Virus record (IMG/VR): IMGVR_UViG_2925939204_000008
Reading direction: 5' to 3' (one strand)
DNA from: a virus
Lineage: Duplodnaviria; Heunggongvirae; Uroviricota; Caudoviricetes
Length of the DNA: 20,678 bases
A model generated the notes under the pieces. That model searched no databases, was not told the origin of the DNA, and saw nothing but the letters and a program-made list of their open reading frames with translations. How positions within the stretch are numbered: position 1 is the first letter of the stretch; every line of letters begins with the position of its first letter. The position numbers and the translations under genes are program-made. Below are positions 1-18,622 of the stretch, one piece after another.

Positions 1-552
1 TTACCTGGTTGCCGGAAATTTTTTATATAGCGTCGATATCCCAACATCGTAAATTAATGCCACACGCTGTCGTGATTCACCTGCTGCAATCAACCTGCCT
101 GCCTGCGCCCACTGTTCATCAGTTAGCTTTGATCGACGCCCACCTATTCGCCCTTCTTCACGAGCCGCAGCCAATCCCGCCCTGGTACGTTCGACTATCA
201 GCTCCCTTTCCATTTCTGCAAGTGCGCCCATGACATGGAAGAAAAAGCGTCCCATTGGTGAAGACGTATCTATGCTGTCGGTCAGGCTGCGAAAGTTAAT
301 ACCCTTTTCCCGAAGCTCCTCCACCAAAACGACAAGATGCCGCATGCTGCGACCGAGTCGATCCAATTTCCAGACCACCAGCGTATCGCCTTCAGACAGA
401 GTCCTGAGTACTTTCTTCAAGCCCGGCCTGTCAGACGTTCTGCCGCTGATCTTATCCTCGAATATCAGTTCACATCCTGCGCACTCCAGCGCGTTTCGTT
501 GCAATGCAGTGTTCTGGTCATTTGTTGACACGCGTACATAGCCGATGAGCAT
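1..552 (-). CDS. pin: Serine recombinase, DNA invertase of the Pin/Gin/Hin/Cin family
   Basis: 183-aa ORF with stop at 1-3; resolvase-type N-terminus (MLIGYVRVSTNDQ with the nucleophilic Ser, LDRLGRS, GRFFFHVMGALAEMERELI) and C-terminal HTH; close to Pin/Gin by recall. Confidence 0.9.
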   Translation of the reverse strand: MLIGYVRVSTNDQNTALQRNALECAGCELIFEDKISGRTSDRPGLKKVLRTLSEGDTLVVWKLDRLGRSMRHLVVLVEELREKGINFRSLTDSIDTSSPMGRFFFHVMGALAEMERELIVERTRAGLAAAREEGRIGGRRSKLTDEQWAQAGRLIAAGESRQRVALIYDVGISTLYKKFPATR

Positions 553-606
553 GAGAAATAACCCTGTAAAAATCCGGGATCATGCCATCTGAGCCGAATA
601 ACTGCA

Positions 607-632
607 TTTTCTAAAAGGTTGGTTTGGGAGAA
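607..632. other. pix/gix-like 26-bp invertase crossover site (one half well conserved, other half degenerate)
   Basis: Minus-strand reading TTCTCCCAAACC AA CCTTTTAGAAAA resembles the gix/hix pattern TTCnnnnAAACC..GGTTT..GA.AA; sits 55 bp upstream of the pin start, where the pin-proximal site is expected. Confidence 0.4.
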
Positions 633-971
633 GCGGCTAAAAGGAATGTAGGGACAGGGGCGAATCAGATACCTGATATGGGTAGCTTCACGCTTTCTGT
701 TTCAGGTACTGGATATCAAAAATTACCATCAGGTTTTATTCTTCAGTGGGGCTCAATCGGCGCACCAGGCATTGCACAGGATGTAGTAACCCATTTCCCG
801 ATTGCATTTCCAAACAGATGTCTGCGTGTTTTGGTCTCACAAGACTACACACCAGATAGCGGGGCTGTTGGTTATATTGCCTGTGCAGGTTTTAGTCCCG
901 ACCCGGTTAAATTTATATCCAGAGCCAGTACTCCTGGCCTCGGCGCTTCATTTTTAGCGTTAGGCTGTTAA
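624..971 (+). CDS. Tail fibre C-terminal (variable-region) fragment; reading frame opens inside the crossover site and has no canonical ATG
   Basis: 115-aa ORF starting with TTG inside the pix-like site and reading away from pin, as expected for the alternative variable tail-fibre segment of an invertible G/P-type region; Gly/Ser/Thr-rich composition. Confidence 0.4.
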
Positions 972-1155
972 TTTAGCTATATGGAGTGAAAAATGAATTA
1001 CATATATTCCGCGACTACAAACTCTTTCTATCCGCTGGAGATGAAAGAGGATTACCCCAGCTCGCGGACATCCTTCCCGGTGGGTTCATCAAACTCCAGT
1101 ACGGAGAGTGTCTCACCATGAGCGATAATCGGTTTCTTTAACTCAAGCTCTTTCA

Positions 1156-1512
1156 TTACTGGTAATCCCCTTCTTCACCGTGGAACTCAAGATCAACCGT
1201 GCCTTCTTCGGCATTATGGTTCGCTTCTCCGTGCAGCCAGGCGGACGACAATACATAGACCTGACCGTTCGCCAGCTCGGCAGTGATGGTCATCTCATCA
1301 GACGAGGTGATTTTGCTCACCGGAAAATTCTTCGGCACCTTGAAGGTCCCTTTGACATAAGGCGCACGGTGAGTTTCCTTGCGGTCCACTGAACCGTCCA
1401 GGCCGATGATGTCATCATTGACCGTCCTGTTCATGGGCACCTCAATGCCGCCGGTCAGCGATAGCTGCTGACCGTCAATTTTGAAATAACAGGTTCCCCC
1501 GATACGGGCCAT
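1156..1512 (-). CDS. Putative contractile-tail tube protein (Mu gpM-like)
   Basis: 118-aa ORF immediately downstream of the sheath-like gene with start/stop overlap at 1512; size and position fit a tube protein; not searched. Confidence 0.5.
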   Translation of the reverse strand: MARIGGTCYFKIDGQQLSLTGGIEVPMNRTVNDDIIGLDGSVDRKETHRAPYVKGTFKVPKNFPVSKITSSDEMTITAELANGQVYVLSSAWLHGEANHNAEEGTVDLEFHGEEGDYQ

Positions 1513-2651
1513 TATGCAGACTCCTCTGAATACTGAAGACGGAACTGGTTAACCACGGCAAAAACACGCAACTGGTTAACATAGTCAGGCGGGAACAGCG
1601 TGTTCAGGCGGTTCGGATCGCTGGCATCACGCTCAACAACCAGGTACTGCTTAAACAGTTCGTAGTTTTCCACGATCCCCGCACACTCAAGCTGACGGTA
1701 GGTTGCCAGCAGTTCCCCTTTGATTACCGCCGGGGTGACAATCGCCTGACCGGGACCAAAGCGGGTACCGTCGCTGGCAAGCTTGTGACGCCCGTACTTA
1801 CTGGTAATGACGGATTTCAGTTTGCGCAGTACATACGCACTGGTATGCAGCGTCTCGCTGTCGAGGTAGCTGTTATCCGCAACCCCGTAAGCATTTTTCC
1901 TGTACGTGGTGACATCACGCTGAATGCGCACCAGCGTGTTAACGGAGGCCGTGTCGTTGAACGGCAGACCGATATAATCAAACGGCTCATCCGCCATTGC
2001 AGCCACCGCGCCGGTGAGAACCGGAGCGCCCGTTCCGGCGGTCCCCGTCGCCACGGCAATCTGTACGCCCGCTGGCAGCACTTCACCCCCACCGAAGCCG
2101 TAGTAATTGAGGCTGACAGGAATTTCATTCCCGCAAAGCCCCTTATGACGCGCGGTCAGCGTGACAACACCAGCCGAAGATGAAGCTGTAAACGGCAGAG
2201 TCGGAACGGCATTGATGGCATCCTGGATACTGCTGGCAATCGTCGTGACGTTATCGCCGTTGGTCACCGGAGCCTGCACACGGGTACGTCCCACATAGAC
2301 ATTCACCGTGCCGCTTTCGGTTGCTTCCCCGGTCACCGTCAGCGTAACCGTTGCCGCCGCGCCTGTGGCTTCCGGAACGGCAATCACATACAGCTCGCCA
2401 AACGGGTCAGTCTGGCGATAAGCCTCGACCATACGCGCCAGCTGACTTCCCGCACCACAAATCTGGCGTGCATAGTCTGCCGACGGCATCAGCACCAGGC
2501 TGTTGGCAACAATCTCTGCACCGTTATTGGCATGACCAATCAGCAGCGATGCTCCGCTGTCCTGTGCAGTATTCGCCGCCGAGTTATCCATTTCCGCATA
2601 AAACAGCGGAACCAGCGTATTCGACGGAATGGTGTTAAAGCTTATCGTCAT
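1512..2651 (-). CDS. Putative contractile-tail sheath protein (Mu gpL-like)
   Basis: 379-aa ORF, Gly/Thr/Val-rich beta-type composition, tightly coupled to the 118-aa downstream gene; sheath-tube pairing inferred from order and size. Confidence 0.55.
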   Translation of the reverse strand: MTISFNTIPSNTLVPLFYAEMDNSAANTAQDSGASLLIGHANNGAEIVANSLVLMPSADYARQICGAGSQLARMVEAYRQTDPFGELYVIAVPEATGAAATVTLTVTGEATESGTVNVYVGRTRVQAPVTNGDNVTTIASSIQDAINAVPTLPFTASSSAGVVTLTARHKGLCGNEIPVSLNYYGFGGGEVLPAGVQIAVATGTAGTGAPVLTGAVAAMADEPFDYIGLPFNDTASVNTLVRIQRDVTTYRKNAYGVADNSYLDSETLHTSAYVLRKLKSVITSKYGRHKLASDGTRFGPGQAIVTPAVIKGELLATYRQLECAGIVENYELFKQYLVVERDASDPNRLNTLFPPDYVNQLRVFAVVNQFRLQYSEESA

Positions 2652-2805
2652 CGGTGTTCACCTTTTTATTCACGCGCCGGATATCACCCGCGGCTTCACG
2701 GCGCAGCCAGTAGTTGTTCTCGTCAACATTTCGCCCTTCGGCGGGCAAAAGGTCGCCGCGGGCAGGGTCAGGCACTGACCGCCCTTTAACAGGTTTCACA
2801 AACAT
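2635..2805 (-). CDS. Small conserved phage protein (56 aa) between terminase and sheath genes
   Basis: Not in the ORF track; ATG at 2805 lies 8 nt after the terminase stop and the ORF overlaps the sheath start by 17 nt; translation MFVKPVKGRSVPDPARGDLLPAEGRNVDENNYWLRREAAGDIRRVNKKVNTDDDKL. Confidence 0.4.
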   Translation of the reverse strand: MFVKPVKGRSVPDPARGDLLPAEGRNVDENNYWLRREAAGDIRRVNKKVNTDDDKL

Positions 2806-2813
2806 GATGATTC

Positions 2814-3944
2814 TCAGGAAGGAAGGGTTATTTCGGTGTGATGTTCGATATCGCCGTCAGGCCCGTTACCGGGATCGAGATAATCAACATCAATCGCCAG
2901 CGTTCGCAGTTCATCTAGACTGTTCAGGTCATCCTGCTGGCGGGTATCGTCTTCAGTCAGCTCGCTGATGACCGAAAAATCGAACTGATAAATCAGCTCA
3001 TGACGATTCAGATCCAGCAGCGTACCGCCGTCATAGGTAATCGGGTTACCGCACGCTTCCGGGTTAGCTTTTTCCAGCACCTGTGGGTCGGTCCAGTCGT
3101 CACCTTCGTCAACGGTATAGATGATCCCGAACAGTTCATCGTTGGGTACCGACCCGTTGAGCATCTCGATAACTTCCCGCCGCTTGTCGTAGCACGGCCC
3201 CTCAATGTTGTACCCGGCAGTAGTAATGGCCCACATCAGTGGCTGACGTCGCGCCCCCATCCCGGTAAGCATCGTGGTGTAAAGCGCGTCGGTGGCGTGC
3301 TCGTGATATTCATCCACCACCGCACAGTGGGGTGATGATCCATCACCGGGGTTACCGATCAGCGGTTCAAACCGCGCGCCATCCTCCGGACGGTTCATGT
3401 TTGAGGCGTTAACCTCAATCCCGAACGCTTCCGTCAGCATGGGTGTGCGTTTACACATCAGTCGCGCCGGGCGAAAGACTTCCCACGCCTGTTTCTCTGT
3501 CGTGGCACCGGAATACACTTCCGCGCCAAACTCGTTATCACAGGCAAAACAATACAGGGCGACACCGGCAGAGATTGCCGATTTGCCGTTCTTACGGGGA
3601 ATTTCGGTATACACCTCCCGGAAGCGGCGCAGCCGGATACCTTTATTGACCCAGCCAAACGCACAGCAGATCACAAAGAGCTGCCACGGCTCCAGCGTGA
3701 TGGGCATCCTCTTGAATGCCCACTCCCCCTTGGTGTGCGGCAACAGTTGAATAAATTTGGCGGCCCGTTCAGCCAGGTCCTTGTCGAAGCGGTAACGAAA
3801 CGACTTACTTTTTTCCGCCATCAGGTCATCAAGATGGCGCTGGCAGGCCTGAATCACAAACTGGCAGGCCACAATCTTTCCGCGCACGACATCACGGGCA
3901 TACTGATTGGCAGCATTTACGTTGGGGTAAGATTTCCGGCTCAT
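2814..3944 (-). CDS. Phage terminase large subunit, ATPase domain only (truncated; nuclease domain missing)
   Basis: Walker A-like PRKNGKS, Walker B-like [14 protein letters not shown] motif; 376 aa is too short for a full TerL and the C-terminal ~70 aa is an acidic low-complexity tail. Confidence 0.7.
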
Positions 3945-4406
3945 GACTCGATGATTTTCAGAAACGGGTTAGTGGCTTTCTTCTGCCCCGCCAGGCCAAT
4001 CAGACGCTGGCGGCTGCTGGGGTCGAGTCCGAGCATTGCCCCCGTGCTGCTCATCTCGGACTCCTGTTCTTTTTTGGCGGTCAGCTCCGGATTTTTGACC
4101 CTGCCGCCCATTGCACCGGTGATGGTGTTGCCCTGTATCAGGAAGAGACACAAAGACGCCATTTGCAGACTGCGCCACAGCGTCAGCAATGAAGTGAGTT
4201 CCACCTGCACGTTGCAAAATCATTGCCCATCCCAGCGGGAAAATCTGATCGCCATCGGCACGAAGGCGGTTAAATAATGCGTTCTCTGTTACATCCAGCC
4301 AGTCAGCAGCTTCAGCGTACCCCCCCGGCAACGCTGCGATAGTTTTTCTGACAGCTTTCACGTACCACTCAGGCTGTTTTTCTACTTTCCAGTGATGCTT
4401 ACCCAC
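3941..4406 (-). pseudogene. Frameshifted small DNA-binding gene upstream of terminase large subunit (terminase small subunit-like or CII-like)
   Basis: N-terminal part in ORF 3969..4406 (HTH-like GGYAEAADWLDVTENALFNRL) turns to low-complexity read-through; C-terminal part in the +1 frame (3941..4210) ends in an ATGA overlap with the terminase start; frames swap around 4110-4170. Confidence 0.45.
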
Positions 4407-4659
4407 GGTTCACCTCCTGTTCCTGTGGTTTAAACCCATTCTGGTTTTGGCTAGATTGAAAACGTGCCGGATAAAGAATCTGCATTTCGCTGACTTCACC
4501 CTTAAAAAAATTGGCTAAACGTTCTGCAAGCTCGATAGATGGAATCTGCTCCAGCCTCTCAATACGACTCAACGTCGCTGGATTGACTTGAACACCCGCA
4601 GCAACATGCTGCAAAGTGAAACCATGCGCCTTACGCACATTTCGTAATGGTGATTGCAT
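4399..4659 (-). CDS. Cro-like HTH (XRE family) DNA-binding protein
   Basis: 86-aa ORF with HTH (FTLQHVAAGVQVNPATLSRIE), divergent from the CI-like repressor across a 97-bp operator-containing intergenic region. Confidence 0.7.
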   Translation of the reverse strand: MQSPLRNVRKAHGFTLQHVAAGVQVNPATLSRIERLEQIPSIELAERLANFFKGEVSEMQILYPARFQSSQNQNGFKPQEQEVNRG

Positions 4660-4673
4660 ACGCCCTCCAAATA

Positions 4674-4736
4674 TTGCGCGTTATGCATGTTATTTCACGC
4701 AATTATTTTGCGCAAGTTGATTTGCTTATCACGCAA
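4674..4736. promoter_or_regulatory. Operator region of the cI-like/cro-like divergent pair (TTGCG..CGCAA palindromes)
   Basis: TTGCGCG-N15-CACGCAA (4674-4702), perfect palindrome TTGCGCAA (4708-4715), TTTGC-N7-CGCAA (4722-4736), all between the two divergent start codons. Confidence 0.45.
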
Positions 4737-4756
4737 TAAAGAAATGTAATAAACGC

Positions 4757-5449
4757 ATGAACATAGGAAACCGAGTCAGACAACTTCGCCAAGCGAAGAA
4801 CATGAAAATCGCCGATCTCGCTGAAGCGATAGGAGTAGATGCGGCGAACATCTCGCGCTTAGAAACGGGTAAGCAAAAACAATTTACCGAACAAACACTG
4901 AGTAATATTGCCAAGAGCTTAGGTGTTGATATTGCTGATCTCTTTACCTCTGCCCACAAAAGTAATACTGTATATAAAAACAGTAATAATGAGGATGTTG
5001 CGCAGGTGAAGGATGTGTTCCGTATTGAAATGCTGGATATCAGTGCCAGTGCGGGAAATGGCCTTATCCAGGGCGGTGATGTCATTGATGTGATTCATGC
5101 CATCGAATACAGAACTGATAATGCTGTATCAATGTTCGGCGGACGACCAGCCAATCACATCAAAGTTATCAACGTTCGTGGGGACAGTATGTGTCCAACC
5201 ATTGAGCCAGGAGATCTCATCTTCGTTGATGTCAGCATCAATCAGTTTGATGGTGATGGTATATATGTCTTTGGTTTTGATGACAAAATATACGTTAAAA
5301 GACTTCAAATGATTCCTGACAAACTGCTGGTGATTTCTGATAACCAGATTTACCGTGAATGGGGAATTACTAGCGAAAACGAACACCGATTCATGGTCTT
5401 TGGAAAGGTCTTAATCAGTCAGTCGCAAACCCTTAAGAGACATAATTAA
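4757..5449 (+). CDS. CI-like phage repressor, N-terminal HTH plus C-terminal LexA-like S24 peptidase domain
   Basis: 230 aa; N-terminal HTH (MKIADLAEAIGVDAANISRLETG); C-terminal S24 signature GDSM (Ser) and downstream KRL (Lys). Confidence 0.85.
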   Translation: MNIGNRVRQLRQAKNMKIADLAEAIGVDAANISRLETGKQKQFTEQTLSNIAKSLGVDIADLFTSAHKSNTVYKNSNNEDVAQVKDVFRIEMLDISASAGNGLIQGGDVIDVIHAIEYRTDNAVSMFGGRPANHIKVINVRGDSMCPTIEPGDLIFVDVSINQFDGDGIYVFGFDDKIYVKRLQMIPDKLLVISDNQIYREWGITSENEHRFMVFGKVLISQSQTLKRHN

Positions 5450-5468
5450 CCTCAATATCCCATCCATC

Positions 5469-5491
5469 GGCCACCGAAAGGTGGCTTTTTA
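5469..5491 (+). terminator. Rho-independent terminator after the repressor gene
   Basis: GC stem GCCACC / GGTGGC with GAAA loop followed by TTTTTA. Confidence 0.7.
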
Positions 5492-5502
5492 TTACCTATA
5501 AA

Positions 5503-5540
5503 TTTGCATATATAGCAAATATAACTTGCATATCTCGCAA
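5503..5540. promoter_or_regulatory. Two operator-like palindromes (TTTGC-N7-GCAAA and TTGC-N7-GCAA) upstream of the xis-int operon
   Basis: TTTGCATATATAGCAAA (5503-5519) and TTGCATATCTCGCAA (5526-5540) share the TTGC/GCAA half-sites seen in the cI-cro intergenic region. Confidence 0.4.
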
Positions 5541-5845
5541 TTTAATTTTATCTTTTGTTCCAGACCAACTACAGGATTACAACAAAATCTGGTTGCAACA
5601 CGGTGCATGTGTCGTAAGCAGTCAGTAAATGTCAAAAACGAACAGGCAGGACGCCCACGAAGTAGCCGCCTGGGGCATATGAAGTCCAGGATGATTCGTT
5701 AGCAACAAAAAAGCGCCCTACAGGACGCTTAGCTCTTTAACAATCTGGTCCCCATCAACAAGTAACTGATAACTTGAGGAGACCTTGAAAACGTCAATAT
5801 CACTCACTGGGCAGTAATGCCAAAAGCACCGGAGGCTGGAGCATA

Positions 5846-6151
5846 ATGACCACTTTTACCGACAAAGAACTGATTAAAGAAATTAAAGAGCGTATCAGCA
5901 GCCTTGACGTGCGAGACGATATTGAGCGCCGTGCTTATGAAATCGCACTCCTATCTCTGGAAGTAGAACCAGATGAACGCGAAGCTTATGAATTATTCAT
6001 GGAAAAGCGTTTCGGTGACTTAGTAGATCGTCGGAGAGCAAAAAACGGCGATAACGAATACATGGCATGGGATATGACTCTCGGTTGGATCGTCTGGCAG
6101 CAACGAGCAGGTATCCATTTTTCAACAATGTCACAACAAGAGGTGAAATAA
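5846..6151 (+). CDS. Hypothetical protein (101 aa), translationally coupled to xis
   Basis: ORF with acidic helical composition; stop TAA overlaps the xis ATG (TAATG at 6149-6153). Confidence 0.5.
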   Translation: MTTFTDKELIKEIKERISSLDVRDDIERRAYEIALLSLEVEPDEREAYELFMEKRFGDLVDRRRAKNGDNEYMAWDMTLGWIVWQQRAGIHFSTMSQQEVK

Positions 6152-6501
6152 TGGAGCCATACAGCCTCACACTCGATGAGGCCTGTCATTTTCTCAAGAT
6201 ATCCAGACCGACTGCCATTAACTGGATACGCACAGGGCGTCTTCAGGCAACACGCAAAGATCCCACTAAGAATAAATCTCCTTACCTCACAACACGACAA
6301 GCCTGCATTGCGGCTCTTCAGTCTCCGCTGCATACTGTCCAGGTGAGCGCGGGTGATGGCATAACAGAGGAAAGAAAATGTCACTCTTCCGCAGAGGTGA
6401 AATATGGTACGCCAGTTTCACATTGCCGAACGGTAAAAGATTTAAACAGTCTCTTGGAACAAAGGACAAAAGGCAGGCGACAGAACTCCATGACAAGCTA
6501 A
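6151..6501 (+). CDS. xis: Excisionase / AlpA-like DNA-binding protein
   Basis: [33 protein letters not shown] is a typical excisionase HTH; start chosen at the ATG at 6151; reading frame stays open to 6501, overlapping the int start by 124 nt, so the true end is uncertain. Confidence 0.65.
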
Positions 6502-7541
6502 AGGCTGAAGCATGGCGGGTCAGCAAACTTGGTGAAATACCTGATATAACGTTCGAGGAAGCGTGTGTCAGGTGGCTTGAAGAGAAAGCACATAAAAAAT
6601 CGCTGGACGATGACAAAAGCCGGATCGGATTCTGGCTTCAACATTTCGCAGGAATGCAACTAAGAGACATTACTGAATCAAAAATTTATTCAGCAATGCA
6701 GAAAATGACGAACCGGCGTCATGAGGAAAACTGGAAACTCAGGGCAGAAGCATGCAGAAAAAAAGGGAAACCTGTTCCAGAATACACGCCAAAACCAGCG
6801 TCCGTTGCAACGAAGGCTACGCATCTTTCATTTATAAAGGCCCTACTAAGAGCCGCAGAGCGTGAATGGAAAATGCTGGATAAGGCACCAATTATTAAAG
6901 TGCCTCAACCAAAGAATAAACGGATCCGCTGGCTGGAGCCCCATGAAGCACAAAGGCTGATTGATGAATGTCCGGAGCCATTAAAGTCTGTTGTTGAATT
7001 TGCACTGGCAACAGGCTTAAGACGCTCGAACATCATCAACCTTGAATGGCAACAAATAGATATGCAGCGCCGGGTGGCATGGATAAACCCGGAAGAGAGT
7101 AAATCAAACCGCGCAATTGGCGTTGCGCTGAATGATACTGCATGTCGCGTATTGAAAAAACAAATCGGGAATCATCACCGTTGGGTATTTGTGTACAAGG
7201 AAAGCTGTACCAAACCAGACGGAACGAAAGCGCCAACAGTAAGGAAGATGCGGTATGACGCAAACACAGCCTGGAAAGCGGCGCTGAGACGGGCTGGTAT
7301 TGATGATTTCAGATTTCACGACTTGAGACACACCTGGGCAAGTTGGCTGGTTCAAGCCGGAGTCCCGTTGTCAGTGTTACAGGAAATGGGAGGCTGGGAG
7401 TCTATCGAAATGGTTCGTCGATATGCTCACCTTGCACCTAATCACCTTACCGAACACGCACGGCAAATAGACTCGATCCTGAACCCATCGGTCCCAAATT
7501 TGTCCCAGTCAAAAAATAAGGAAGGTACTAATGATGTGTAA
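6378..7541 (+). CDS. int: Tyrosine recombinase, phage integrase (e14 IntE-like)
   Basis: 387 aa; N-terminus [14 protein letters not shown]; catalytic-type motifs HDLRHTWAS and VRRYAHL; good RBS GAGGAAAG. Confidence 0.9.
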
Positions 7542-7713: not shown

Positions 7714-8937
7714 ATGAAATACAAGCCGGATCAATACATCATATCTGATAGTTACGGAGTTTATTACGTCAGGATTTCAATTCCTGTATGGCTTCGTAAT
7801 GCATTTGGTGGAAGAAAAACTCTCGTCCGTAGTCTGAACACTTCCGATCTTCGTGTGGCTCGTAGGAAGCGTGATGTTATAGCCGACGAATTTCACCACA
7901 TCAGGCAAATTGCAGAGCCGCCAAAACCGGACAGCTTGCAGGACACGATCAGCTTTTTAAAGAGCGTGGCTAAGTACGCGAAAGCTGCCCCGAAAGCATC
8001 AGCTCCGATTATCTACCAATGCCCCTCTCTGAATAAGATGTTAGAGATTTACCTCACGCATAACGCTGATCGCCTGAAAATGGGAACATTAAGCAAGACC
8101 AGAAAAGCCGTTGAACTGTTCCTGAATTACCTGCGAAAGAAGGATGTTGAACTAAACGATATCAACCGTACCACCGTTACAGGCTGGCTTGATCATCTCC
8201 GAGAGACAAAGGCAGTCCAGACAGTGGCTAACTACCTATCAGCAATGGCAAACATTCTCGATCTTGCCTCTTCCCGATACCAGGACGCCCCACCGCTGGA
8301 AACTAACGTGTTCAGGGGGCATAAACTCAACACAGCGCAGAGCCGCCAGAGTTACGAGGCATTCACGGACGAAGAAATTACGAAGCTCATTAGCACGTTT
8401 AACAAGTTAGGAGAGGACGAATTAAGGGATGTGAGCGCCATCGCCGCTTATAGCGGAATGCGCATCAATGAAATAGCCAGTTTGAAATCTGACAATATCC
8501 GTGAAGTTGAGGGGGTGTTATGTTTCGAGGTGACGGAGGGTAAGACACGCAATGCGGCGCGGTTGGTTCCACTTCATAGTGCGATTAGAAAAATGGTTCT
8601 GGAACGCTGCCAGAAGCCGCACAACGGCTTTTTATTCTACCGTGCAAGTGTGACCAAGAGACAGGACGGCAAGCGCTCCTCATGGCACGTAAACCGCTTT
8701 GGACGGCTTAAACGCGATATTCTCCCAGGGCAGGAAAACAAGGTGTTTCACTCGTACCGCCATGCAGTGATCAGTAAGCTAAACGCCGCCGGAGTGGATG
8801 AATCTCGTATTGCCTTGCTCGCGGGTCACTCATTTGGAGAAACTGAGTCTTTCAAGACGTATTCGAAGAGTGTTCCTGAGCGTATTATGAAGGAGTTAGC
8901 GGGGTATATTGAATTAATAAATTACAACGTCCAGTAA
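7714..8937 (+). CDS. int: Tyrosine recombinase, integrase of genomic-island type
   Basis: 407 aa; C-terminal catalytic region with HSYRHAVIS and a downstream Tyr; long N-terminal arm/core-binding region. Confidence 0.85.
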   Translation: MKYKPDQYIISDSYGVYYVRISIPVWLRNAFGGRKTLVRSLNTSDLRVARRKRDVIADEFHHIRQIAEPPKPDSLQDTISFLKSVAKYAKAAPKASAPIIYQCPSLNKMLEIYLTHNADRLKMGTLSKTRKAVELFLNYLRKKDVELNDINRTTVTGWLDHLRETKAVQTVANYLSAMANILDLASSRYQDAPPLETNVFRGHKLNTAQSRQSYEAFTDEEITKLISTFNKLGEDELRDVSAIAAYSGMRINEIASLKSDNIREVEGVLCFEVTEGKTRNAARLVPLHSAIRKMVLERCQKPHNGFLFYRASVTKRQDGKRSSWHVNRFGRLKRDILPGQENKVFHSYRHAVISKLNAAGVDESRIALLAGHSFGETESFKTYSKSVPERIMKELAGYIELINYNVQ

Positions 8938-9584: not shown

Positions 9585-11435
9585 TCATCCCCCTGTGGAT
9601 GACTGACCGCTCAAGGCTGATAGCGTAAGGCTACGAGTGAATGAATCCGCACTCGCTTTTGCAGACCAGTCGATATAGTCAGACAATCGAGAAACATCAC
9701 TTTGCAGAGTCAATCCCACTTGTGGATTCACTTGTAGGTTGAATATCGGGTTCAACGTGTACGCTGGCGCGTTGCTGCTGTTGAGCGACATTGCCGAAGC
9801 ACGGAGATTTTCCCCTGAAAGGCTGTATTGATTAGTCGCTGTCCCTGCTTGCTGATTACCAACGCCCAACCAATCCATGATAGCCGGAGCCACTGAACGG
9901 GTATCAAACCCCGTTTTATCCTGAATCCAATCGGCCGTAGCATTCGCAGAGCCACCCACAGCACCATCATAAAGATTTTGAACAGCAGGTTTCTTAGTAT
10001 CGCTAAACCATTCAGGGTGTTGTTGGCGGAGAGTACTGTTAAGATCAGACACTACGCTGGAGATTTCTCCAACAAAGCCCGTCACCTGTTTAGCCAGGTC
10101 GCCTAATCCCTCTCCGAGCATACCAGCAGATTCTGTTATCACTTTGGTGTTCTTCACCAGGTCGTCACCACCATCAGCAAAGCCTTTCATAAAGCCTGTA
10201 AACATGCTGTTATCAACGCCATTCATGAGATTACCCATCGCTACACTCAGATCACCATATGCAAGAGTTTGCTTGATCTGCTCCTCGTTAAGAGTTTGAC
10301 CACTATCGACAAGCTGTTTCAGCGTCTTGTTATATTCTGCACCGTTGTTCATGAACATATCGGTGTAGTGCATCAGGTCATCACCTAAACTCTCTATAAG
10401 CGTACCAATCTGAGCCTGTGACATACCACGGCGTTGCCCTTCATTGGTAACTGCTTGAAGTAGATCAGCAGGACGATCCTGGAAGGATTTAATCTGTTCT
10501 TTGCCCCATCCAAACTTATTCATAATAGAAGTGATACCACCATCGCCGCCTTTCCATTCGCCATTTTTAAACTGGCTATCGTTCAGGGTCATAGCGATAC
10601 GTTCACGTACATCTTTGAAATTGTCCGTCACTTTATCGACATTGGCGCTATCAACTCCGTGTTGCTGCCCCCATGCCACCATCGTTTTAACTACGTTAGG
10701 ATTAGTCTTAACAAGTTCCGATTTTCTAACCAAGTCAAGATTTTCATTCCCTTTGTCAACAATTCGCTGCCCCACTCCGAGGGAGCCAGCCGTTAACGCA
10801 AGGCTTCCTAATACCCCACCACCGACGATAGGAGCATTCCCGCCCTTCTGAGCCTTTAGCTTAGTGGCTGCTGCGGCATACTGGGTACGCTGTGCCTGTG
10901 TCACTTTCGCTTGTTGTGCGGCTTCTCTGCGTAACAGGGTTACACGCTCGCGTATAAGCGCATTCATACGTTGAGAGCTAATATTCCCCTTCGCAAACTC
11001 TTCGCTTTGCTGATGAATATAACGTAACGCTTCATACTGAGATTTAGGATCAAGCCCGTATTTACCTTTAATTCCTGACACTTGTAGCCCTGCATGGCGA
11101 AGTTTAAGCTCGGCTGTCTCTTGGCGCTTCTGTAGCTGCTGCTTCGCTTTCAGATTGGCCTTTTCATCCCTGGCTTTCTGCTTCTCCGCCGCACGTTGGG
11201 CTTTCATTTCCTTCGTATCACGAGGCTTATCATTAAAACGTGCATCATCGGCTTGTTGACGGGCTTTCTGTCTGCGCTGCTTCAGATCCTGGAAGCGAAT
11301 CTTGGGATCGGCTATTTTCTGGAAGTGCTTTTGAAGGTTATCCGCTGCGGCCTTAGCCTCTGCAATACTCCCTTTGTCAACGGTGAAAGTTACGGTGTTG
11401 ACGATCTTACTTGTATTAATCTCAAGCATCGCCAC
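9585..11435 (-). CDS. Large structural-type protein, tape-measure-like (coiled-coil N-terminus, Gly-rich hydrophobic segments)
   Basis: 616 aa; K/R/Q/E-rich coiled-coil N-terminus then APIVGGGVLGSLALTAGSLGVG-type segments; GTG at 11435 or ATG at 11429 as start; function inferred from composition only. Confidence 0.4.
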   Translation of the reverse strand: MAMLEINTSKIVNTVTFTVDKGSIAEAKAAADNLQKHFQKIADPKIRFQDLKQRRQKARQQADDARFNDKPRDTKEMKAQRAAEKQKARDEKANLKAKQQLQKRQETAELKLRHAGLQVSGIKGKYGLDPKSQYEALRYIHQQSEEFAKGNISSQRMNALIRERVTLLRREAAQQAKVTQAQRTQYAAAATKLKAQKGGNAPIVGGGVLGSLALTAGSLGVGQRIVDKGNENLDLVRKSELVKTNPNVVKTMVAWGQQHGVDSANVDKVTDNFKDVRERIAMTLNDSQFKNGEWKGGDGGITSIMNKFGWGKEQIKSFQDRPADLLQAVTNEGQRRGMSQAQIGTLIESLGDDLMHYTDMFMNNGAEYNKTLKQLVDSGQTLNEEQIKQTLAYGDLSVAMGNLMNGVDNSMFTGFMKGFADGGDDLVKNTKVITESAGMLGEGLGDLAKQVTGFVGEISSVVSDLNSTLRQQHPEWFSDTKKPAVQNLYDGAVGGSANATADWIQDKTGFDTRSVAPAIMDWLGVGNQQAGTATNQYSLSGENLRASAMSLNSSNAPAYTLNPIFNLQVNPQVGLTLQSDVSRLSDYIDWSAKASADSFTRSLTLSALSGQSSTGG

Positions 11436-11619
11436 CGCCTTTTTTACTCACCAGATAATTAAGTGCATCTGATACACTACGCCCACGATGTAATAACTGA
11501 CGTAGATGACCGTGATCTATTTCAAGCACACGACACACTCCCGCCAGATTTAATAACTCTTCTGCTGTTTCAGCATTTACGGCGAGGTGAAGCCCCGCGC
11601 TTTTTACAATCACTTGCAT
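11422..11619 (-). CDS. Hypothetical small protein (65 aa)
   Basis: ATG with upstream GAGGAAAG; overlaps the start of the 616-aa gene by 14 nt. Confidence 0.45.
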   Translation of the reverse strand: MQVIVKSAGLHLAVNAETAEELLNLAGVCRVLEIDHGHLRQLLHRGRSVSDALNYLVSKKGGGDA

Positions 11620-11738
11620 TTATCTTTCCTCATTCTGGAAATAAAAAAGGGCGGGAACACTGGGGAGATGTTCCCAACGTTCACACGCCCTATTCAATAG
11701 CCTGATTATTTCCAGCGGGTCAGGCTCCCGCTTGCTCA

Positions 11739-12770
11739 TTAAGCAGTGATGGTGATCTTCACCTGCATACCTAACGCATGGTTCACTGGTAATGCGCTGT
11801 TTTCGTGCATAACGTGGTAAGCATCGCCGCGCTCGCTCAGGTAGCCCCAAGAGTAGTATTCAGCAGGTGCAGCATCGATCAGCGCAAAGTTACCAGAGGC
11901 AGCGCCGTAGATGTTCTGATAAGCATTTGTGCCTTTACTGAACACCGGAACCGCCACCATGTCAGCATCATCTGGCATCTGTGCAAGGATCAGCGGATCT
12001 GTCACTTTAACAATGTCGATAGGCGCACCAGGTAGGCTAAACGTACTAACACCAGGGAGAAGCTCGTGACGCTGGTAGAATAGGTTACGGTCGTCATATG
12101 GCGCTACATACTGGAACGCCTTAGACATACTGTCAGAGAAGCGAATCTGGCTAAATGCAGCAGGTTTAGCGAATACGATCACTCGTTCAATCTGTCCAGC
12201 CAATCCACCTGCGGCAGCCTGAACTTTGTCTAAGATCGCATCAAAATCCTGTGCCGCTGTCGCTGTGCTCACGCTGGCTGTCATTGGCACCACACCGAAC
12301 AGTTCAGCATAAGAGATCAGTAGGTCATCAGTTGCAGGCGTATAAACTTCACCTTTGAACAGAGCACGGGCCAGGTAAGACTCACGGGTACGCAGATAAG
12401 CAATCTTATGTTTGCCAGTGTATTCGGTGTACAGGTCGGTAACGGTTTGCTCGTAGTCCGTTCCCTGCACTCTGCGGCCTTGTACGTCTACAGGTTTAAA
12501 CTCATCTTCCCTTGCAAACCAAGGAATCTCGATAAGGTATTCTTTGCCATTCTGACGCGCGGTAGTGTCGTGGTTTGATGAATAACGGCTCTGCGGGGTG
12601 TTAAACAGGCTGTAGTTATCATCCAGAAGCTGTGTCACCACCACTTTCGGATTCTGAACACCTACCCCGTCGAATAGGTCGAGGGCATTCATAAGATAGT
12701 TACGTTCCGGCAGAGCCTGGAAGATTGGCGCTAAATCGACCATCTCACGCCCAATTGCGATTTTACTCAT
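11739..12770 (-). CDS. Putative major capsid protein (lambda gpE-like size and position)
   Basis: 343 aa (lambda gpE is 341 aa), directly downstream of a ~119-aa gene as in the lambda D-E pair; assignment from size, order and composition, not from confirmed similarity. Confidence 0.45.
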   Translation of the reverse strand: MSKIAIGREMVDLAPIFQALPERNYLMNALDLFDGVGVQNPKVVVTQLLDDNYSLFNTPQSRYSSNHDTTARQNGKEYLIEIPWFAREDEFKPVDVQGRRVQGTDYEQTVTDLYTEYTGKHKIAYLRTRESYLARALFKGEVYTPATDDLLISYAELFGVVPMTASVSTATAAQDFDAILDKVQAAAGGLAGQIERVIVFAKPAAFSQIRFSDSMSKAFQYVAPYDDRNLFYQRHELLPGVSTFSLPGAPIDIVKVTDPLILAQMPDDADMVAVPVFSKGTNAYQNIYGAASGNFALIDAAPAEYYSWGYLSERGDAYHVMHENSALPVNHALGMQVKITITA

Positions 12771-12786
12771 TATTTATCTTCCTTGA

Positions 12787-13146
12787 TTAAGAGGTGAAGA
12801 ATGGACGGCATACGAACCCTTTGGATTCGAGCGTGGTGATAGCTGCGGCGTGATTAGCTGCGTGCAGGTTGTCGGCTTTCAGTGCTACGAAGCTACCAAC
12901 ATTAGGCGCACGTAGGACATTCACGGTTTTACCGTCGCCAGCACTCACGAAATCACTTACCACCACAAAGGCATCATCGCCGGAGGTGTATAGAGCGCCA
13001 TCAGCGCCGATAACATCGCCGCATTCAATATCTGCTGGCAGGTCGAAAACACGGCCTTCTACGACTGCAAAAGAATCAGTGGCGTAGCTCAATACGTCAG
13101 TGAAACTCTTACGAATTGGGAAAAGTTCGGTTAGGTCTACAATCAT
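12787..13146 (-). CDS. Putative head decoration or small capsid-associated protein (gpD-like position)
   Basis: 119 aa, Gly/Ala/Val-rich, immediately upstream of the capsid-like gene. Confidence 0.3.
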   Translation of the reverse strand: MIVDLTELFPIRKSFTDVLSYATDSFAVVEGRVFDLPADIECGDVIGADGALYTSGDDAFVVVSDFVSAGDGKTVNVLRAPNVGSFVALKADNLHAANHAAAITTLESKGFVCRPFFTS

Positions 13147-13358
13147 TGTTGTTTGATTTCCTTGGATTTGATTGCGATCCGTTCCTGCATACTAAGTTGA
13201 GGTGTGTCCTCAGAAGGGAAATACTGGTCTACAGCTTTTTCTATTTCTTCAACGGTACATCCTGCCATTTCAGCCACTTTAGCTATTAACTCAGGATTAA
13301 CTTGAATCACTTCGGATTTGTATTTTAGGATTCGGTCGCGATTGTTTATTAAGAACAT
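13143..13358 (-). CDS. Hypothetical small protein (71 aa), first gene of the structural operon
   Basis: ATG at 13358 preceded by GAAGGAA; stop overlaps the next start (ATGA at 13143-13146). Confidence 0.45.
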   Translation of the reverse strand: MFLINNRDRILKYKSEVIQVNPELIAKVAEMAGCTVEEIEKAVDQYFPSEDTPQLSMQERIAIKSKEIKQQ

Positions 13359-13433
13359 TGTGTTGTTCCTTCGCGTTATAACTGCGTTTATCCTTCCATT
13401 GATAACGGAAGTGTTACATGCAGATTGTTAAAA

Positions 13434-13451
13434 AGGGGCGATTAAGCCCCT
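13434..13451 (-). terminator. Intrinsic terminator on the minus strand between the regulatory and structural operons
   Basis: Minus-strand RNA AGGGGC-UUAAUC-GCCCCU followed by UUUU. Confidence 0.45.
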
Positions 13452-14024
13452 GGAGAATATGCCCTTGTTAGAAAGCATTCTGTTAAAATCATTTTCGTTT
13501 CGGAGGATTATGATGTTAAAGAATGGCTTCTTGAAAAAATGAAGGGCGCAACTGTTACGAATAACAGAAGTAGGATCGCCCGTCATTGCTCCCACTTCAA
13601 AACAGAAGCCCTTCTGTCATGGCGAGAAGTGGGAATGGAATCTCAATATCACCACTGGAATAGTAATAAGAGATTGCCAGCCTGAACGTAACTACCGCTG
13701 ACGGCGTTTATTCAGTCTGACTACATTCATCCTAACGGAATGAATGAGCAAAGAGCGAATGCCCTTTCTGAAAAAGTCGGAGATGCGCGGTGATTGCGAT
13801 GCAATACCAACACAACGAGATATTACATCCCGCGCATTCCTTCGGAACAAACAAGACAAAGAACCAACACTTTCAGAAATAGCATTCAGAGGGAGAGAAT
13901 GCCGCTATGGGAACGGCATTCTCAAGGAGTGCGTATTGACATACGAGGGTGAAGTGATTCGAATACTTACCCTATAACTCATTATGACACATATAGCACA
14001 TAATGTCAAGACATTTAGTAACTT

Positions 14025-14363
14025 TTATGTTATGGCGCATTCTTCCGCGATCTGGATGGAAAGCTCTCCGAGTTCAACGGTGATGTATTGCAGAGAGCAA
14101 GCAAGCTCCTCAAGGTCATTAGCTACACGCCACGCTTCTTCTGGTGTGATCGAACTGCCGTCACGCTGCACCAAACGAGCTACAGACGTTTGCAGATGTT
14201 CAAGGGCAGTGATTGCCTGTTCAGTGTATTGCACCGCTTCCAGAAGCGCGGAGGGCGTTCTCTCACGCCACGCTGCATTAACAAGCTGTAAGGTTGGTAA
14301 ATGCCAGTTGTCGTGGAAAGAGTTAATTAGGGTGTTCACTGTGTCCATAGTTTTATTATTCAT
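14025..14363 (-). CDS. Hypothetical protein (112 aa from the ATG at 14363)
   Basis: ORF track gives 14025..14459; the ATG at 14363 overlaps the upstream stop (14356-14358) and is the likelier start. Confidence 0.45.
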   Translation of the reverse strand: MNNKTMDTVNTLINSFHDNWHLPTLQLVNAAWRERTPSALLEAVQYTEQAITALEHLQTSVARLVQRDGSSITPEEAWRVANDLEELACSLQYITVELGELSIQIAEECAIT

Positions 14364-16497: not shown

Positions 16498-16592
16498 GTT
16501 GCCTGATAGTGCGGTGTAAGTTGGATTGTTTGCGTTAGGCTGGATGCCTGAGATGAGGACGGGATGAATGCTTTCATTACCCTACATCATTT

Positions 16593-16672
16593 ACTTTAAC
16601 ATGAAATGATTTAAGTGTCAACACTTATTTAAATCCCTTTCAAATTATAGCGCATTTCCACGTTGTGATCAA
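16593..16672 (-). promoter_or_regulatory. Two tandem sigma70-like promoters directed into the minus-strand regulatory operon
   Basis: TTGATC (16667-16672) 17 nt TATAAT (16644-16649), and TTGACA (16616-16621) 17 nt TAAAGT (16593-16598), read on the minus strand. Confidence 0.4.
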
Positions 16673-17223
16673 CTCATTCATGTCATCATAAAACGCGGTC
16701 TATCGCTTTCTAACAGGTTTGAAAGCCTGAGAGTTGCAATCCCCTCCCTATCCTCTCAAATTCGCTCTCAGCGCGTCTGGGGCGTTCCGTTTGCGTTACC
16801 GCCGCCCTCTGGCACTTACTCCCGAAACCAATAGCACAACTACTGAGGGATAACGTTAGTTATCAGGATAGTAGGTGATGGTATTGGATTGAGGCTGGAT
16901 GAACTGGAGCCATCAGCGACCAGTGAATCCTTAGCCGTGGGCTAACTTTGCATGGATGAATGCGGAGCATGGAAGACAGGCAGAAGTTATGCTGAAAGAC
17001 ATTGCGCACACGGCGCATAGCTTCTGTGCCTCGTTTCACGAGGGCGAAGCCCTGGCACAATCACAGACAGATGCGCTACGCTGCGTCGTGAGCGGCTGAC
17101 CGAGTAGCCCCCAAAGGCGAATCAGGTCACTTGCCAGGCGATACGCGCCAGCAAAGCGAATCTTTAACAAGATCTTCTAAAAGCTCTCTTTTAGAGATCG
17201 CTTTTAGAATCTCTTTGTATAGA

Positions 17224-17305
17224 ACATCAATTTGATGTGTAGTTTGCCGATCCATACATCAATTTGATGCGTATCCCATGCATCTATACATCATTTTGAT
17301 GTATA
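17224..17305. repeat. Three 18-bp direct repeats at exactly 32-bp spacing, each with an internal palindrome ACATCAA(t)TTGATGT
   Basis: ACATCAATTTGATGTGTA (17224-17241), ACATCAATTTGATGCGTA (17256-17273), ACATCATTTTGATGTATA (17288-17305). Confidence 0.8.
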
Positions 17306-18061
17306 ACGCCCCCAACTAACTCTGATTCATCCATGCAACAACACTAAGAGTAACGAGAGGTTATTCCTATCAAAACAACACGATAATCATAGCTAAGCCT
17401 ATCTTAAATGACAGGTAAAGATTGCCGTTGTTACATGGGTAAAGTTGCCATAGTCAGCAAGATAGTAACCATCACTCACTTTGCGTAAAGCCTTGCGCCA
17501 TGCGGCTCACAGCGATCATTGTCCACAATGAGGAGTTTCATGACAGGTGCAATGTGCTGAACGAGTTTTCTAAAATGAAACGATGTTTCTTTTTCATGCC
17601 AAAATCCACCAATTGATTAGCATTCTAATCATTTCATTACACACTCAGTTTCAAGTGCATAAACTCCGCATAATTTGTGCATACAGGCAGGTTAGCCCCG
17701 CCCTCGCCTAACAACCTTACATTTATCAGATTTAAATCAATGAGATAGACAATAACCACACACAAGCATTGGTAGTGTGATGTTCCGCTGTTGCCGCTGT
17801 TCTTCGTGCAGAGTTGAGGATTTGGCAATGTTCAAACACATGTTTATAAATGCCAACATCATGATTTTGTTCAAGATATTTAGAGGAGAAGAAATTTTCG
17901 ATCTGGAGGCGGCCCTGGAGGTCGTTAAGCACTGGACGCAATCGCGCCATTTACCACACACAAGACAGTTCGATTTTTGATCATTTATATTGCAACTTAC
18001 TGAAATTGATCATATTGTTTGTTTCGTTGAGTTTAGATGTGTGTCTTTATGGGAGGGTAAA

Positions 18062-18622
18062 TTGAACAGAGCAGTAGTGTTAGACGAACAGCAAGCCAAA
18101 GCGATCAGGGAGTGGCTAAACGCTCATAACAAGAGCCTGATAGCTGACGTTACGTTAATGATGCAAGCCGCTGTACTGCGTGTGGGGGATGCCGTAGCGT
18201 TACGCTTCGACGAAGTGATCAACGGTGAGATTGACATAGAAGAACAGAAGACAGGGAAGCGTAAAGCCCTCACTCTCCCTGCTCCAGTGGTGCAGATGAT
18301 TGCTCGTCGCCGTGCTGAGTATCCGCATGATGTGCATGTGTTCAGAAGCCAGCGTAACCGATCAATGAACAAGCAAGCGCCTGTACGACGCGAAGAAGTG
18401 AGCAAGCAGATCGCAGAGGCCGCTAAAGCTATCGGTATTCATGGCACTGTATCAGCTCACAGCTTCCGCAAAGCTGGCGGGAATGCCATCTACAAGCGTT
18501 CAGCAAACAACATCGCTTTAGCTATGACCGTGCTTAATCACAGCAACATCACTGACACCAGGCGCTATCTGGATTTAGACAAGCAAGCCGTTAGCCGTGT
18601 GATCAATGAGATGGACTTATAA
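18062..18622 (+). CDS. Small tyrosine recombinase, catalytic domain only (FimB/FimE-sized or truncated integrase)
   Basis: ORF open from 17990; likely start TTG at 18062 after GGGAGGG, or GTG at 18041; motifs ALRFDEV, HSFRKAGG and TRRYLDL fit the R...H-x-x-R...Y catalytic pattern. Confidence 0.65.
   Translation: MNRAVVLDEQQAKAIREWLNAHNKSLIADVTLMMQAAVLRVGDAVALRFDEVINGEIDIEEQKTGKRKALTLPAPVVQMIARRRAEYPHDVHVFRSQRNRSMNKQAPVRREEVSKQIAEAAKAIGIHGTVSAHSFRKAGGNAIYKRSANNIALAMTVLNHSNITDTRRYLDLDKQAVSRVINEMDL

Follow-up and report, generated by a model that had tools for sequence, protein, structure and literature searches.

The late genes of lambdoid phages are served by a module (Q/PR'/6S or StxS/tR') in which the last regulatory gene is followed by a strong sigma-70 promoter, a terminated non-coding transcript, and then structural genes without a detected sigma-70 promoter of their own. 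The terminated transcripts are short, ~194 nucleotides (nt) for the 6S RNA of lambda and ~74 nt for StxS. In Shiga toxin (Stx) phages, the terminated transcript from PR' functions as a small RNA in its own right (PMC7547250). The same order of elements was found in the 666-bp interval at positions 13359-14024 of the virus record IMGVR_UViG_2925939204_000008 (20,678 nt; this whole stretch of DNA is referred to here as the window). The interval, which is unannotated in RefSeq, sits between two minus-strand genes, p112 and p71, of a ~13-kb island adjoining tRNA-Thr, and it contains one structured RNA whose pairing has been kept across homologous islands. On balance, we favor the interpretation that the interval is a single minus-strand unit, a long structured leader with a terminator that would gate the capsid operon.

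The island unit differs from the lambdoid module in several respects. Its RNA is ~545 nt long with ~19 covarying helices, the lambdoid PR' region has no sequence similarity to the island leader, and no member of the Q family of antiterminators, which the lambdoid module requires, was found in the island, where p112 and p127 had no match in Pfam or PHROG. On these comparisons, the unit would work like the PR'-6S-tR' layout of lambda but is not a member of that system.

An RNA-based element in the operon leader of a satellite is also known from the immunity leader of satellite phage P4 (the CI RNA, with seqA, seqB, and seqC), which can be compared together with the c4 antisense RNA of P1 and P7 (Rfam family C4, RF01695). 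There is a formal likeness to the pairing of P4 seqB with seqA and seqC, in that segment Y of the island RNA (13780-13757) is complementary both to the upstream segment X (13887-13864) and to the downstream segment Z (13756-13750). However, no match to RF01695 was found in the island window, the pairing in the island is intramolecular, and the leader of P4 precedes early and replication genes whereas that of the island precedes capsid genes. None of the P4 hallmarks (sid, psu, delta, and alpha) was detected among the ten main minus-strand proteins of the island.

A further comparison is with ROOL, GOLLD, HEARO, OLE, and raiA, large structured RNAs of bacteria and phages whose function is unknown or has come to light only recently. 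They are likewise several hundred nucleotides long, have many covarying helices, occur in mobile or prophage-like DNA, and have no obvious coding or classical riboswitch role. The island RNA matches none of their Rfam models and, unlike ROOL-type RNAs, has so far been found in one family of Enterobacteriaceae islands, at a fixed position between two operons and with its own promoter and terminator. Among RNA elements of processive antitermination, the put sites of HK022 and the boxA-NusB/E systems of rrn operons and lambda share with the island a structured RNA directly after a strong promoter, and a boxA-like CGCUCUUU(A/G) is present in the linker of many variants. HK022 put, however, consists of two short stem-loops (~70 nt), which is unlike the island RNA.

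Few large bacterial RNAs with heavy covariation are known that lack an assigned family, and such RNAs have repeatedly led to new biology. The novelty of the locus appears to lie in a terminated late-promoter leader whose structured RNA family is itself new and unusually large. The RNA sits where the regulatory operon of a mobile island gives way to its capsid operon. If the RNA gates capsid expression, the locus would be a compact and testable case of how late genes are controlled in a satellite-like element without a recognizable regulator of the Q, Ogr/Delta, or AlpA type; an additional action in trans would make the RNA a new functional class. In either case, the interval is a defined promoter-RNA-terminator cassette.

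Conservation of pairing across homologous islands

Homologous islands were gathered from genomes, viral contigs, and metagenomes by means of the capsid protein and conserved DNA words. Loci that carry the RNA were found in seven genera (Escherichia, Pseudenterobacter, Enterobacter, Kluyvera, Scandinavium, Buttiauxella, and Citrobacter) and in gut metagenomes; a metagenome scan with a 16-nt motif returned mainly chance matches and only four new true homologs. In all members of the group designated subfamily A, 590 to 690 nt separate the −10 hexamer of the promoter from the ATG of p71. The RNA interval is a mosaic, parts of which have been exchanged by recombination in other islands, and in the most divergent islands it is better conserved than both flanks. 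In locus L013, for example, nucleotide identity is 78% in the RNA and 54-65% in p112, p71, p119, and the capsid gene.

The minimum free energy (MFE) of the minus-strand RNA was −195.6 kcal/mol, compared to −137.8 ± 6.5 kcal/mol in dinucleotide shuffles (z = −8.9); the plus strand of the same interval gave z = −4.2. Eight homologs, folded independently and without alignment, had z-scores of −4.7 to −10.9.

Covariance models were built from the MFE structure of the window, minus isolated pairs, for the 3' half (R1, 13748-13424; 102 bp) and the 5' half (R2, 13976-13749; 74 bp) of the RNA, and 21 distinct homologs were realigned to both. Standard pairs accounted for 93.0% of the pair cells in the 3' half and 94.6% in the 5' half of the covariance-model alignment, versus 40-48% and 43-52%, respectively, when the 3' partner was slid. 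Changes on both sides were seen in 54 of the 102 pairs of the 3' half and in 36 of the 74 pairs of the 5' half, for a total of 90 of 176. The cells changed on both sides numbered 241 in the 3' half (shuffle mean, 75) and 166 in the 5' half (shuffle mean, 49). None of 500 shuffles reached the observed values in either half. The 21 sequences are related and mosaic, so that cell counts overstate the number of independent events.

Because alignments fitted to a model lean towards that model, a structure-blind control was made. In a MAFFT alignment of 17 sequences, 80.2% of the cells were paired, compared to 43-48% when slid, and double-sided changes occurred in 56 pairs, compared to 23-36 when slid. 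The count of further pair types in this control was not above that of shuffles (335 of 500 were as high). Both models were derived from the window's own MFE structure, a dependence that is mitigated by the structure-blind control, by the independent z-scores, and by the several sequence versions in which many helices occur. RNAalifold on whole-length MAFFT alignments did not yield a good consensus, given the mosaic make-up of the modules and their many insertions and deletions, and it was replaced by the covariance-model realignment.

MFE z-scores alone did not assign the strand robustly, as the sense strand was clearly better in five of the eight homologs and about equal in three. The minus strand is indicated by the direction of the promoter, by the presence of a U-tract after the terminator hairpin on that strand only, and by the excess of G-U over A-C cells among the modelled pairs (321 versus 73, or 4.4 to 1), some of the G-U pairs being invariant in all sequences. 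This is also the direction of all flanking genes. The interval is one structured RNA that is kept by pairing across homologs. An earlier note on this DNA, which had proposed folding with covariation across homologous islands as a check, had overlooked that the interval holds a single RNA; the nested inverted repeats and the terminator that it had singled out are indeed kept by compensatory changes.

The same results bear on the possibility that the interval is a DNA site, either for packaging (cos or pac) by the terminase of a helper or for replication; a packaging or replication site had been among the options of the earlier note. Satellites need a packaging site compatible with the helper, none has been located in the island, and inverted repeats abound in this intergenic region. 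Nevertheless, a DNA site seems very unlikely. What is conserved is pairing rather than sequence, over ~19 helices and 90 pairs with compensatory changes on both sides, with G-U favored over A-C; the conserved block begins at the promoter and ends at the terminator; and iteron-like repeats are found in another gap (~17225-17300). Furthermore, BLAST of the interval and the RNA against 50,697 phage and 72,556 plasmid records, considered up to E ≤ 1, revealed no homolog, and only chance matches of 22-32 nt (E ≥ 0.2) were returned.

The RNA also had no match among described RNA families. Across the whole window, none of the 4,227 models of Rfam 15, which include C4/CI RNA, ROOL, GOLLD, HEARO, OLE, 6S, tmRNA, RNase P, riboswitches, and ribozymes, matched at the gathering score. 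When positions 13300-14100 were searched by E-value, there were only four matches, all at chance level (14.5-18.2 bits against thresholds of 49-90; E, 1.1 to 9.4). ARAGORN detected no tRNA or tmRNA in the interval, and Tandem Repeats Finder reported nothing there.

Promoter, terminator, and access to the capsid operon

The promoter of the interval, which had gone unnoticed in the earlier note, begins 16 nt after the stop codon of p112. It scores 11/12 with an extended −10 and is the top match of the whole element, by consensus match only. Transcription is predicted to start near 13974. At the same position, TTGAC(A/T)-17 bp-TAnnnT with a score of at least 9/12 is present in 14 of 17 subfamily A variants and in three variants of a sister group, subfamily B. 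The promoter spacers fall into about five discrete types, which in our comparison of an identity table with the spacer types did not track the alleles of p112 or p127. Dyads are present within the spacer, so control at initiation is also possible.

The lambdoid module has a sigma-dependent pause element near its promoter, a −10-like hexamer in the first transcribed nucleotides, and a Q-binding element in the spacer. In the island, a TAGGGT sequence (TAnnnT) lies at about +1 to +6; it forms the 5' strand of helix P1 as well, and it recurs after the promoter of the early operon. The latter is a second strong promoter (16577-16621, minus strand; TTGACA-17-TAAAGT with TG, 10/12). The octamer TAGGGTAA follows both promoters, at 16584-16577 (early) and 13974-13967 (interval); these are its only two copies in the window, where 0.31 would be expected by chance, and 5 of 100 shuffles reach two. 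It may mark a shared design of the 5'-end hairpin, or a shared regulator or pause site.

A promoter element shared with a helper, such as a PR' or Q-binding element, was sought by BLAST of two promoter types against phages, and no lambdoid or PR'-like region matched, nor did any promoter of an enterobacterial phage. With one of the two types, all matches were to phages of Gram-positive hosts. The other had weak matches of 30-38 nt in a mixed set of phages, the best in a Fusobacterium phage (E = 5e-4), and marginal matches (E = 3) to three T4-size (~167-170 kb) E. coli/Shigella phage records.

The intrinsic terminator at the other end of the RNA, which the earlier note had placed exactly (13434-13451), lies 71 nt upstream of p71, and its hairpin has a predicted energy of −11.5 kcal/mol (RNAfold). 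A GC-rich hairpin followed by a U-tract is present on the minus strand only. Homologs have terminators with other stems, e.g., GGGCUAC-UUCG-GUAGCCC and GGCGAC-UUCG-GUCGCC, and in every case a U-rich tract comes next. Five of the six pairs of this helix (3'-half helix 11) have changed on both sides. A simple terminator scanner did not list 13451-13430, probably because, after lengthening the stem by an A-U pair, it finds only four T left to count.

The promoter just upstream of the 71-aa gene that the earlier note had considered a candidate was not borne out: the 46-76 nt that separate the terminator from the ATG of p71 contained no sigma-70-like site scoring at least 8/12 in any of 16 variants (L019 left out). 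In some variants this space is too short for a promoter; only 46 nt are available in L027. With no recognizable sigma-70-type promoter in this stretch, RNA polymerase most likely reaches the capsid operon by reading through the terminator. Taken together, the strong promoter at one end, the conserved terminator at the other, and the lack of a promoter ahead of the capsid operon suggest that late transcription enters at the interval, and of the three options offered in the earlier note a regulated late-operon junction fits best.

In the interpretation that we favor, transcription would begin at the strong sigma-70 promoter right after the last early gene, yield a structured non-coding RNA of ~545 nt, and end at the conserved intrinsic terminator before the first gene of the capsid operon. 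Transcripts that stop at the terminator would build up as a discrete structured RNA, and those that pass it would become the mRNA of the capsid operon. The promoter may also be regulated via its variable, dyad-containing spacer. The start and 3' end of the RNA, the read-through, and any regulation are inferred from sequence features.

Several points weigh against this interpretation. An antiterminator was sought in p112 and p127 and none was identified. The terminator of the window is modest (6-bp stem, U5), and it may only attenuate transcription. A consensus scan may miss a promoter downstream of the terminator if it depends on an activator or is not of the sigma-70 type. Finally, ~19 conserved helices are not obviously needed by a simple leader, which argues for an additional function.

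A serious rival proposal, to which we give distinctly less credence, is that the RNA is the product of a free-standing gene for a large, trans-acting non-coding RNA and that the capsid operon is served by an activator-dependent promoter at the dyad that follows the terminator. Such an RNA could bind protein, act on helper-phage or host RNAs through its CCUCC or AAUCAC loops, or take part in particle assembly. The conserved structure is bracketed exactly by promoter and terminator, distant elements keep the RNA better than its flanks, and the number of covarying helices and the near-invariant loops (UCGAAUCAC, CCGUUAGG, the P3 hairpin, and, in most variants, CCUCC) go beyond the needs of known leaders. 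There is also a conserved dyad between the terminator and the Shine-Dalgarno sequence. However, the center of this dyad lies only ~28 nt (our estimate for L027) to ~50 nt from the ATG, which leaves too little room for a promoter and a 5' untranslated region, and no −10/−35 pair of at least 8/12 follows the terminator in the 16 variants. Extended complementarity to the RNA is absent from the 50,697 phage genomes. Moreover, a role in trans is compatible with the leader model and does not exclude it.

It is possible, although we lean against it, that the RNA belongs to a class of large (~550 nt) structured non-coding RNAs that has not been described before and is confined to an uncharacterized family of ~13-kb Enterobacteriaceae islands, which integrate at tRNA genes and encode a capsid. 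The role of the RNA would then extend beyond cis gating of the capsid operon. It might bind protein or serve as a scaffold for particle formation or helper exploitation, or it might respond to a signal from helper or host by switching between helix P4 and an alternative hairpin. The earlier note had listed a small RNA among its options. This was right in kind and not in scale, since the interval holds one ~545-nt RNA of ~19 helices instead of a small RNA and scattered signals.

The position of the terminator also argues against a pre-primer or copy-control RNA that would serve replication of the excised element in the manner of RNA II. The RNA II of ColE1 is ~550 nt long, structured, and made from a strong promoter, and the island RNA resembles it in length, promoter strength, and heavy structure. 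However, the island RNA stops at an intrinsic terminator and not at an origin; the island has an initiator module of its own (a DUF6945/O-like protein and an HTH_36 protein, with a helicase in other members) and iteron-like repeats ~3.5 kb away; and the RNA persists in islands in which the replication module has been exchanged. It is hard to credit such a role for the RNA.

In most variants, a CUG...CAG stem with a covarying interior follows the terminator. Dyads akin to the post-terminator GTAAC-N6-GTTAT are found within the promoter spacers of other family members (L019, CGTAACGAAAATGTTATAG; L032 and L030, TTAACAGAAATGTTA; compare the post-terminator TAACAGAAAAGTTA of L027), and a DNA operator role is therefore equally possible for the post-terminator dyad. 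This distribution suggests that one family of DNA-binding regulators might act at both ends of the RNA gene.

The architecture is conserved even where the RNA is not. In subfamily B (loci L018, L033-L042, L047, and L048, mostly from E. coli), the leader is unrelated and shorter, with a folded region of ~210 nt (z = −5.75) and a CU-rich CUUCUCCUCCUU stretch, and the covariance models of the window RNA do not match it. The order is nevertheless the same: p112 stop codon, TTGACA-17-TAATAT, structured RNA, terminator, dyad, Shine-Dalgarno sequence, and p71.

Anatomy and coding potential of the RNA

The features of the interval and its flanking genes are listed in Table 1.

Table 1. Positions of the promoter, the RNA and its helices, the terminator, and the flanking genes in the window
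Feature	Position	Strand	Description
p112, upstream flanking gene	14025..14363	-	Last gene of early/regulatory operon; coding sequence in RefSeq
Sigma-70 promoter	13981..14009	-	−35 TTGACA 14009-14004; 17-bp spacer; TG-extended −10 CATAAT 13986-13981
Structured non-coding RNA	13430..13974	-	~545 nt; putative leader of capsid operon; ~19 helices, 176 modelled base pairs
P1, 5'-terminal hairpin	13946..13973	-	AGGGU.../...ACCCU from predicted +1/+2; 4/9 pairs changed on both sides
P2	13945-13932	-	
P3 hairpin, GAGAAUGCCG...CGGCAUUCUC	13895..13923	-	Nearly invariant sequence; 10-nt arms, 100% complementary
Domain II	13757..13887	-	Closed by long-range helix P4 (13887-13864 with 13780-13757)
Alternative local hairpin	13750..13771	-	3' arm of P4, AAAGGGC, pairs with downstream GCUCUUU
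Hairpin with loop CCGUUAGG	13746-13724	-	
GUCAG/CUGGC-closed domain	13721-13676	-	
Hairpin	13675-13639	-	
P12, nested inverted repeats	13589..13635	-	Outer stem 13635-13626 with 13598-13589; inner stem 13618-13612 with 13607-13601, then UUUU
P13	13538..13587	-	AAUGA/UCAUU and GGGCG/CGCCC stems around UUCG-loop hairpin
P14, long hairpin	13470..13531	-	Apical loop CCUCC 13506-13502, the complement of GGAGGA
Intrinsic terminator	13430..13451	-	Stem (A)GGGGC/GCCCC(U); loop UUAAUC; U5 at 13434-13430
Post-terminator hairpin or dyad	13382..13423	-	CUGC...GCAG around GUAAC-N6-GUUAU (13417-13402)
AACGCGAAGGAA block with p71 Shine-Dalgarno sequence	13366..13377	-	Identical in all subfamily A variants (alignments)
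p71 (71-aa gene)	13143..13358	-	First gene of capsid operon; ATG at 13358-13356

In the 5' half, the loop of P1 is UCGAAUCAC, within which AAUCAC is invariant. Five pairs of P3 never vary, and alternation of U-A with U-G was seen. The inner helices of Domain II lie at 13863-13838, 13837-13783, and 13829-13798; double-sided changes were found in 5/7, 8/15, 3/8, and 11/11 pairs of 5'-half helices 4, 5, 7, and 8, respectively, and the hairpin at 13829-13798 has four different sequence versions among the homologs.

The alternative local hairpin has 7-8 bp in all 10 sequence variants represented among the 21 homologs, with energies of −5.8 to −8.7 kcal/mol compared to shuffle means of −0.6 to −3.2 kcal/mol. 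It is mutually exclusive with the base of helix P4, so that a switch is possible. On these models, the pair of helices could act as a conformational switch, or a NusB/E site could be located there. A boxA-like CGCUCUUUG at 13757-13749 falls in the 3' arm of the alternative hairpin. A boxA signal bound by NusB/NusE would be a conserved, single-stranded sequence of the GCUCUUUA type; the corresponding segment reads CGCUCUUUA in eight homologs and UGCUCUAAA, UGCUUUUUA, or UGUUCUAAG in others. The segment also covaries as a hairpin arm, and the resemblance to boxA may therefore be incidental.

In the 3' half, the nested inverted repeats TCCCACTTC and GAAGTGGGA of the earlier note lie at 13590-13598 and 13626-13634, 1 nt from where they had been placed, and enclose CAGAAG (13603-13608) and CTTCTG (13611-13616). 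They form P12, whose helices (3'-half helices 5 and 6) have changed on both sides in 8/10 and 4/7 pairs, with CCCACUUC/GAAGUGGG, GCCUAUUA/UAAUAGGC, and CCUCAUUUA/UAAAUGAGG as alternative versions of the stem. In P13 (3'-half helices 7 and 8), GGG/CCC is replaced by CCC/GGG in four sequences, and all six pairs of the inner hairpin have changed on both sides. P13 includes a 20-nt block, GCAAUGACGGGCGAUCCUAC, that is conserved in most variants and lies in a reading frame that differs between homologs. The apical loop of P14 (3'-half helices 9 and 10) displays CCUCC in most variants and CUCC in L030, whereas L019 and L020 lack this motif. When the translation-initiation regions of the island were compared by eye, no convincing partner for pairing of the CCUCC loop with the island's own ribosome-binding sites was found.

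The earlier note had described the interval as non-coding, without a minus-strand open reading frame (ORF). The first part held, as no ORF in the interval is conserved and none of at least 40 codons is common to the family on either strand. The second did not, because two 55-codon ORFs with GTG or TTG starts are present on the minus strand. A GGAGGA followed by a 10-codon mini-ORF was confirmed on the plus strand, with the GGAGGA at 13502-13507 and the ORF at 13510-13542, about 10 nt from the position first given; however, the ORF is not conserved, and the GGAGGA is the complement of the CCUCC loop.

The coding of small proteins or a leader peptide, with attenuation coupled to translation, would have two candidates: this mini-ORF (MMLKNGFLKK), in which the GGAGGA stands 2 nt ahead of ATGATG, and a 52-aa minus-strand ORF (MTGDPT...), in which GGGAG stands 2 nt ahead of the AUG within the 20-nt conserved block. 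Even so, we give hardly any weight to this explanation. The mini-ORF overlies the 5' arm of P14, has 7, 10, or >23 codons among the variants, and is on the strand opposite to the promoter, terminator, and transcript, which leaves leader-peptide attenuation unsupported. The minus-strand ORF ranges from 10 to 54 codons and shifts frame between homologs, its AUG motif was not found in 8 of the 21, and the conserved block lies in different frames.

The island and its surroundings

The window is sequence of an E. coli chromosome, with 100% identity to AR_0128 and seven further complete genomes, and related copies are present in 13 of 5,426 complete E. coli genomes. Besides AR_0128, the E. coli strains MS6192 and Ecol_224 are carriers. 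The integrase gene of the island is at 7714-8937 on the plus strand. The early minus-strand operon encodes p82, p58, the DUF6945/O-like initiator, the HTH_36 protein, p127, and p112, and the late minus-strand operon encodes p71, p119, a gpE-like major capsid protein (PF03864), p65, and a 616-aa tape-measure-like protein. For the capsid protein, the 50,697 phage records contain no close relative (best match, 27% identity). By protein homologs, the island family extends to E. coli, Klebsiella, Enterobacter, Citrobacter, and Cronobacter. Relatives are integrated at tRNA-Leu and, in the case of L207, at a different tRNA gene whose anticodon we read as CCC, and in relatives the replication module is exchanged for a helicase. 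Literature searches for the island family, the accessions of its proteins, and a similar RNA yielded no description.

Homologs of p112 are common across Enterobacteriaceae, and all are named 'hypothetical'; the protein searches with p112 and p127 covered the best 120 of 134 and of 165 matching clusters, respectively. The AlphaFold model of p112 is a three-helix bundle with a predicted local distance difference test score (pLDDT) of 93, for which the best Foldseek matches in PDB were designed or spectrin-like bundles (best E = 0.25). The model of p127 (pLDDT, 60) was too poor for a structure search. A Q-like role for p112 or p127 was rejected, as neither family, fold, nor a relationship of alleles to promoter types supported it.

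Upstream of p71, in window-type variants only, a 24-nt tandem direct repeat (71% identity, 13359-13406) doubles the ribosome-binding region that contains GAAGGA. Further along the late operon, a gpE-like capsid protein, a possible decoration protein, and the tape-measure-like 616-aa protein are combined at 9585-12770, and the relative L207 also encodes a Dit-like (PF21821) distal tail protein (11629-12303). No portal or terminase match was found among the ten island proteins scanned. With this gene content, the island looks like a member of an undescribed satellite-like family. It was considered whether the ~13.7-kb metagenome contig L207 is an excised circle, and this was ruled out, as the copy is integrated and has a tRNA gene and a repeat of the tRNA 3' end at its flanks.

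Beside the island, positions 1-7541 hold a decayed prophage remnant with a frameshifted terminase, tail sheath and tube genes, a DNA invertase, and a second integrase (6378-7541). Together with the island, the remnant makes up a tandem array of integrative elements at tRNA-Thr. In addition to the full-length integrase, the island encodes a short 186-aa tyrosine recombinase (18062-18622, plus strand), which is kept in relatives next to a large non-coding gap. It resembles invertases of the FimB/FimE type, so that an invertible switch is conceivable. In the window, the 1.5-kb unannotated gap at 16498-18061 contains three iteron-like palindromes of the form CATCAAA(A/T)TGATG, with a spacing of ~30 nt, at ~17225-17300 (minus-strand reading), which are probably the origin of the island or operators.

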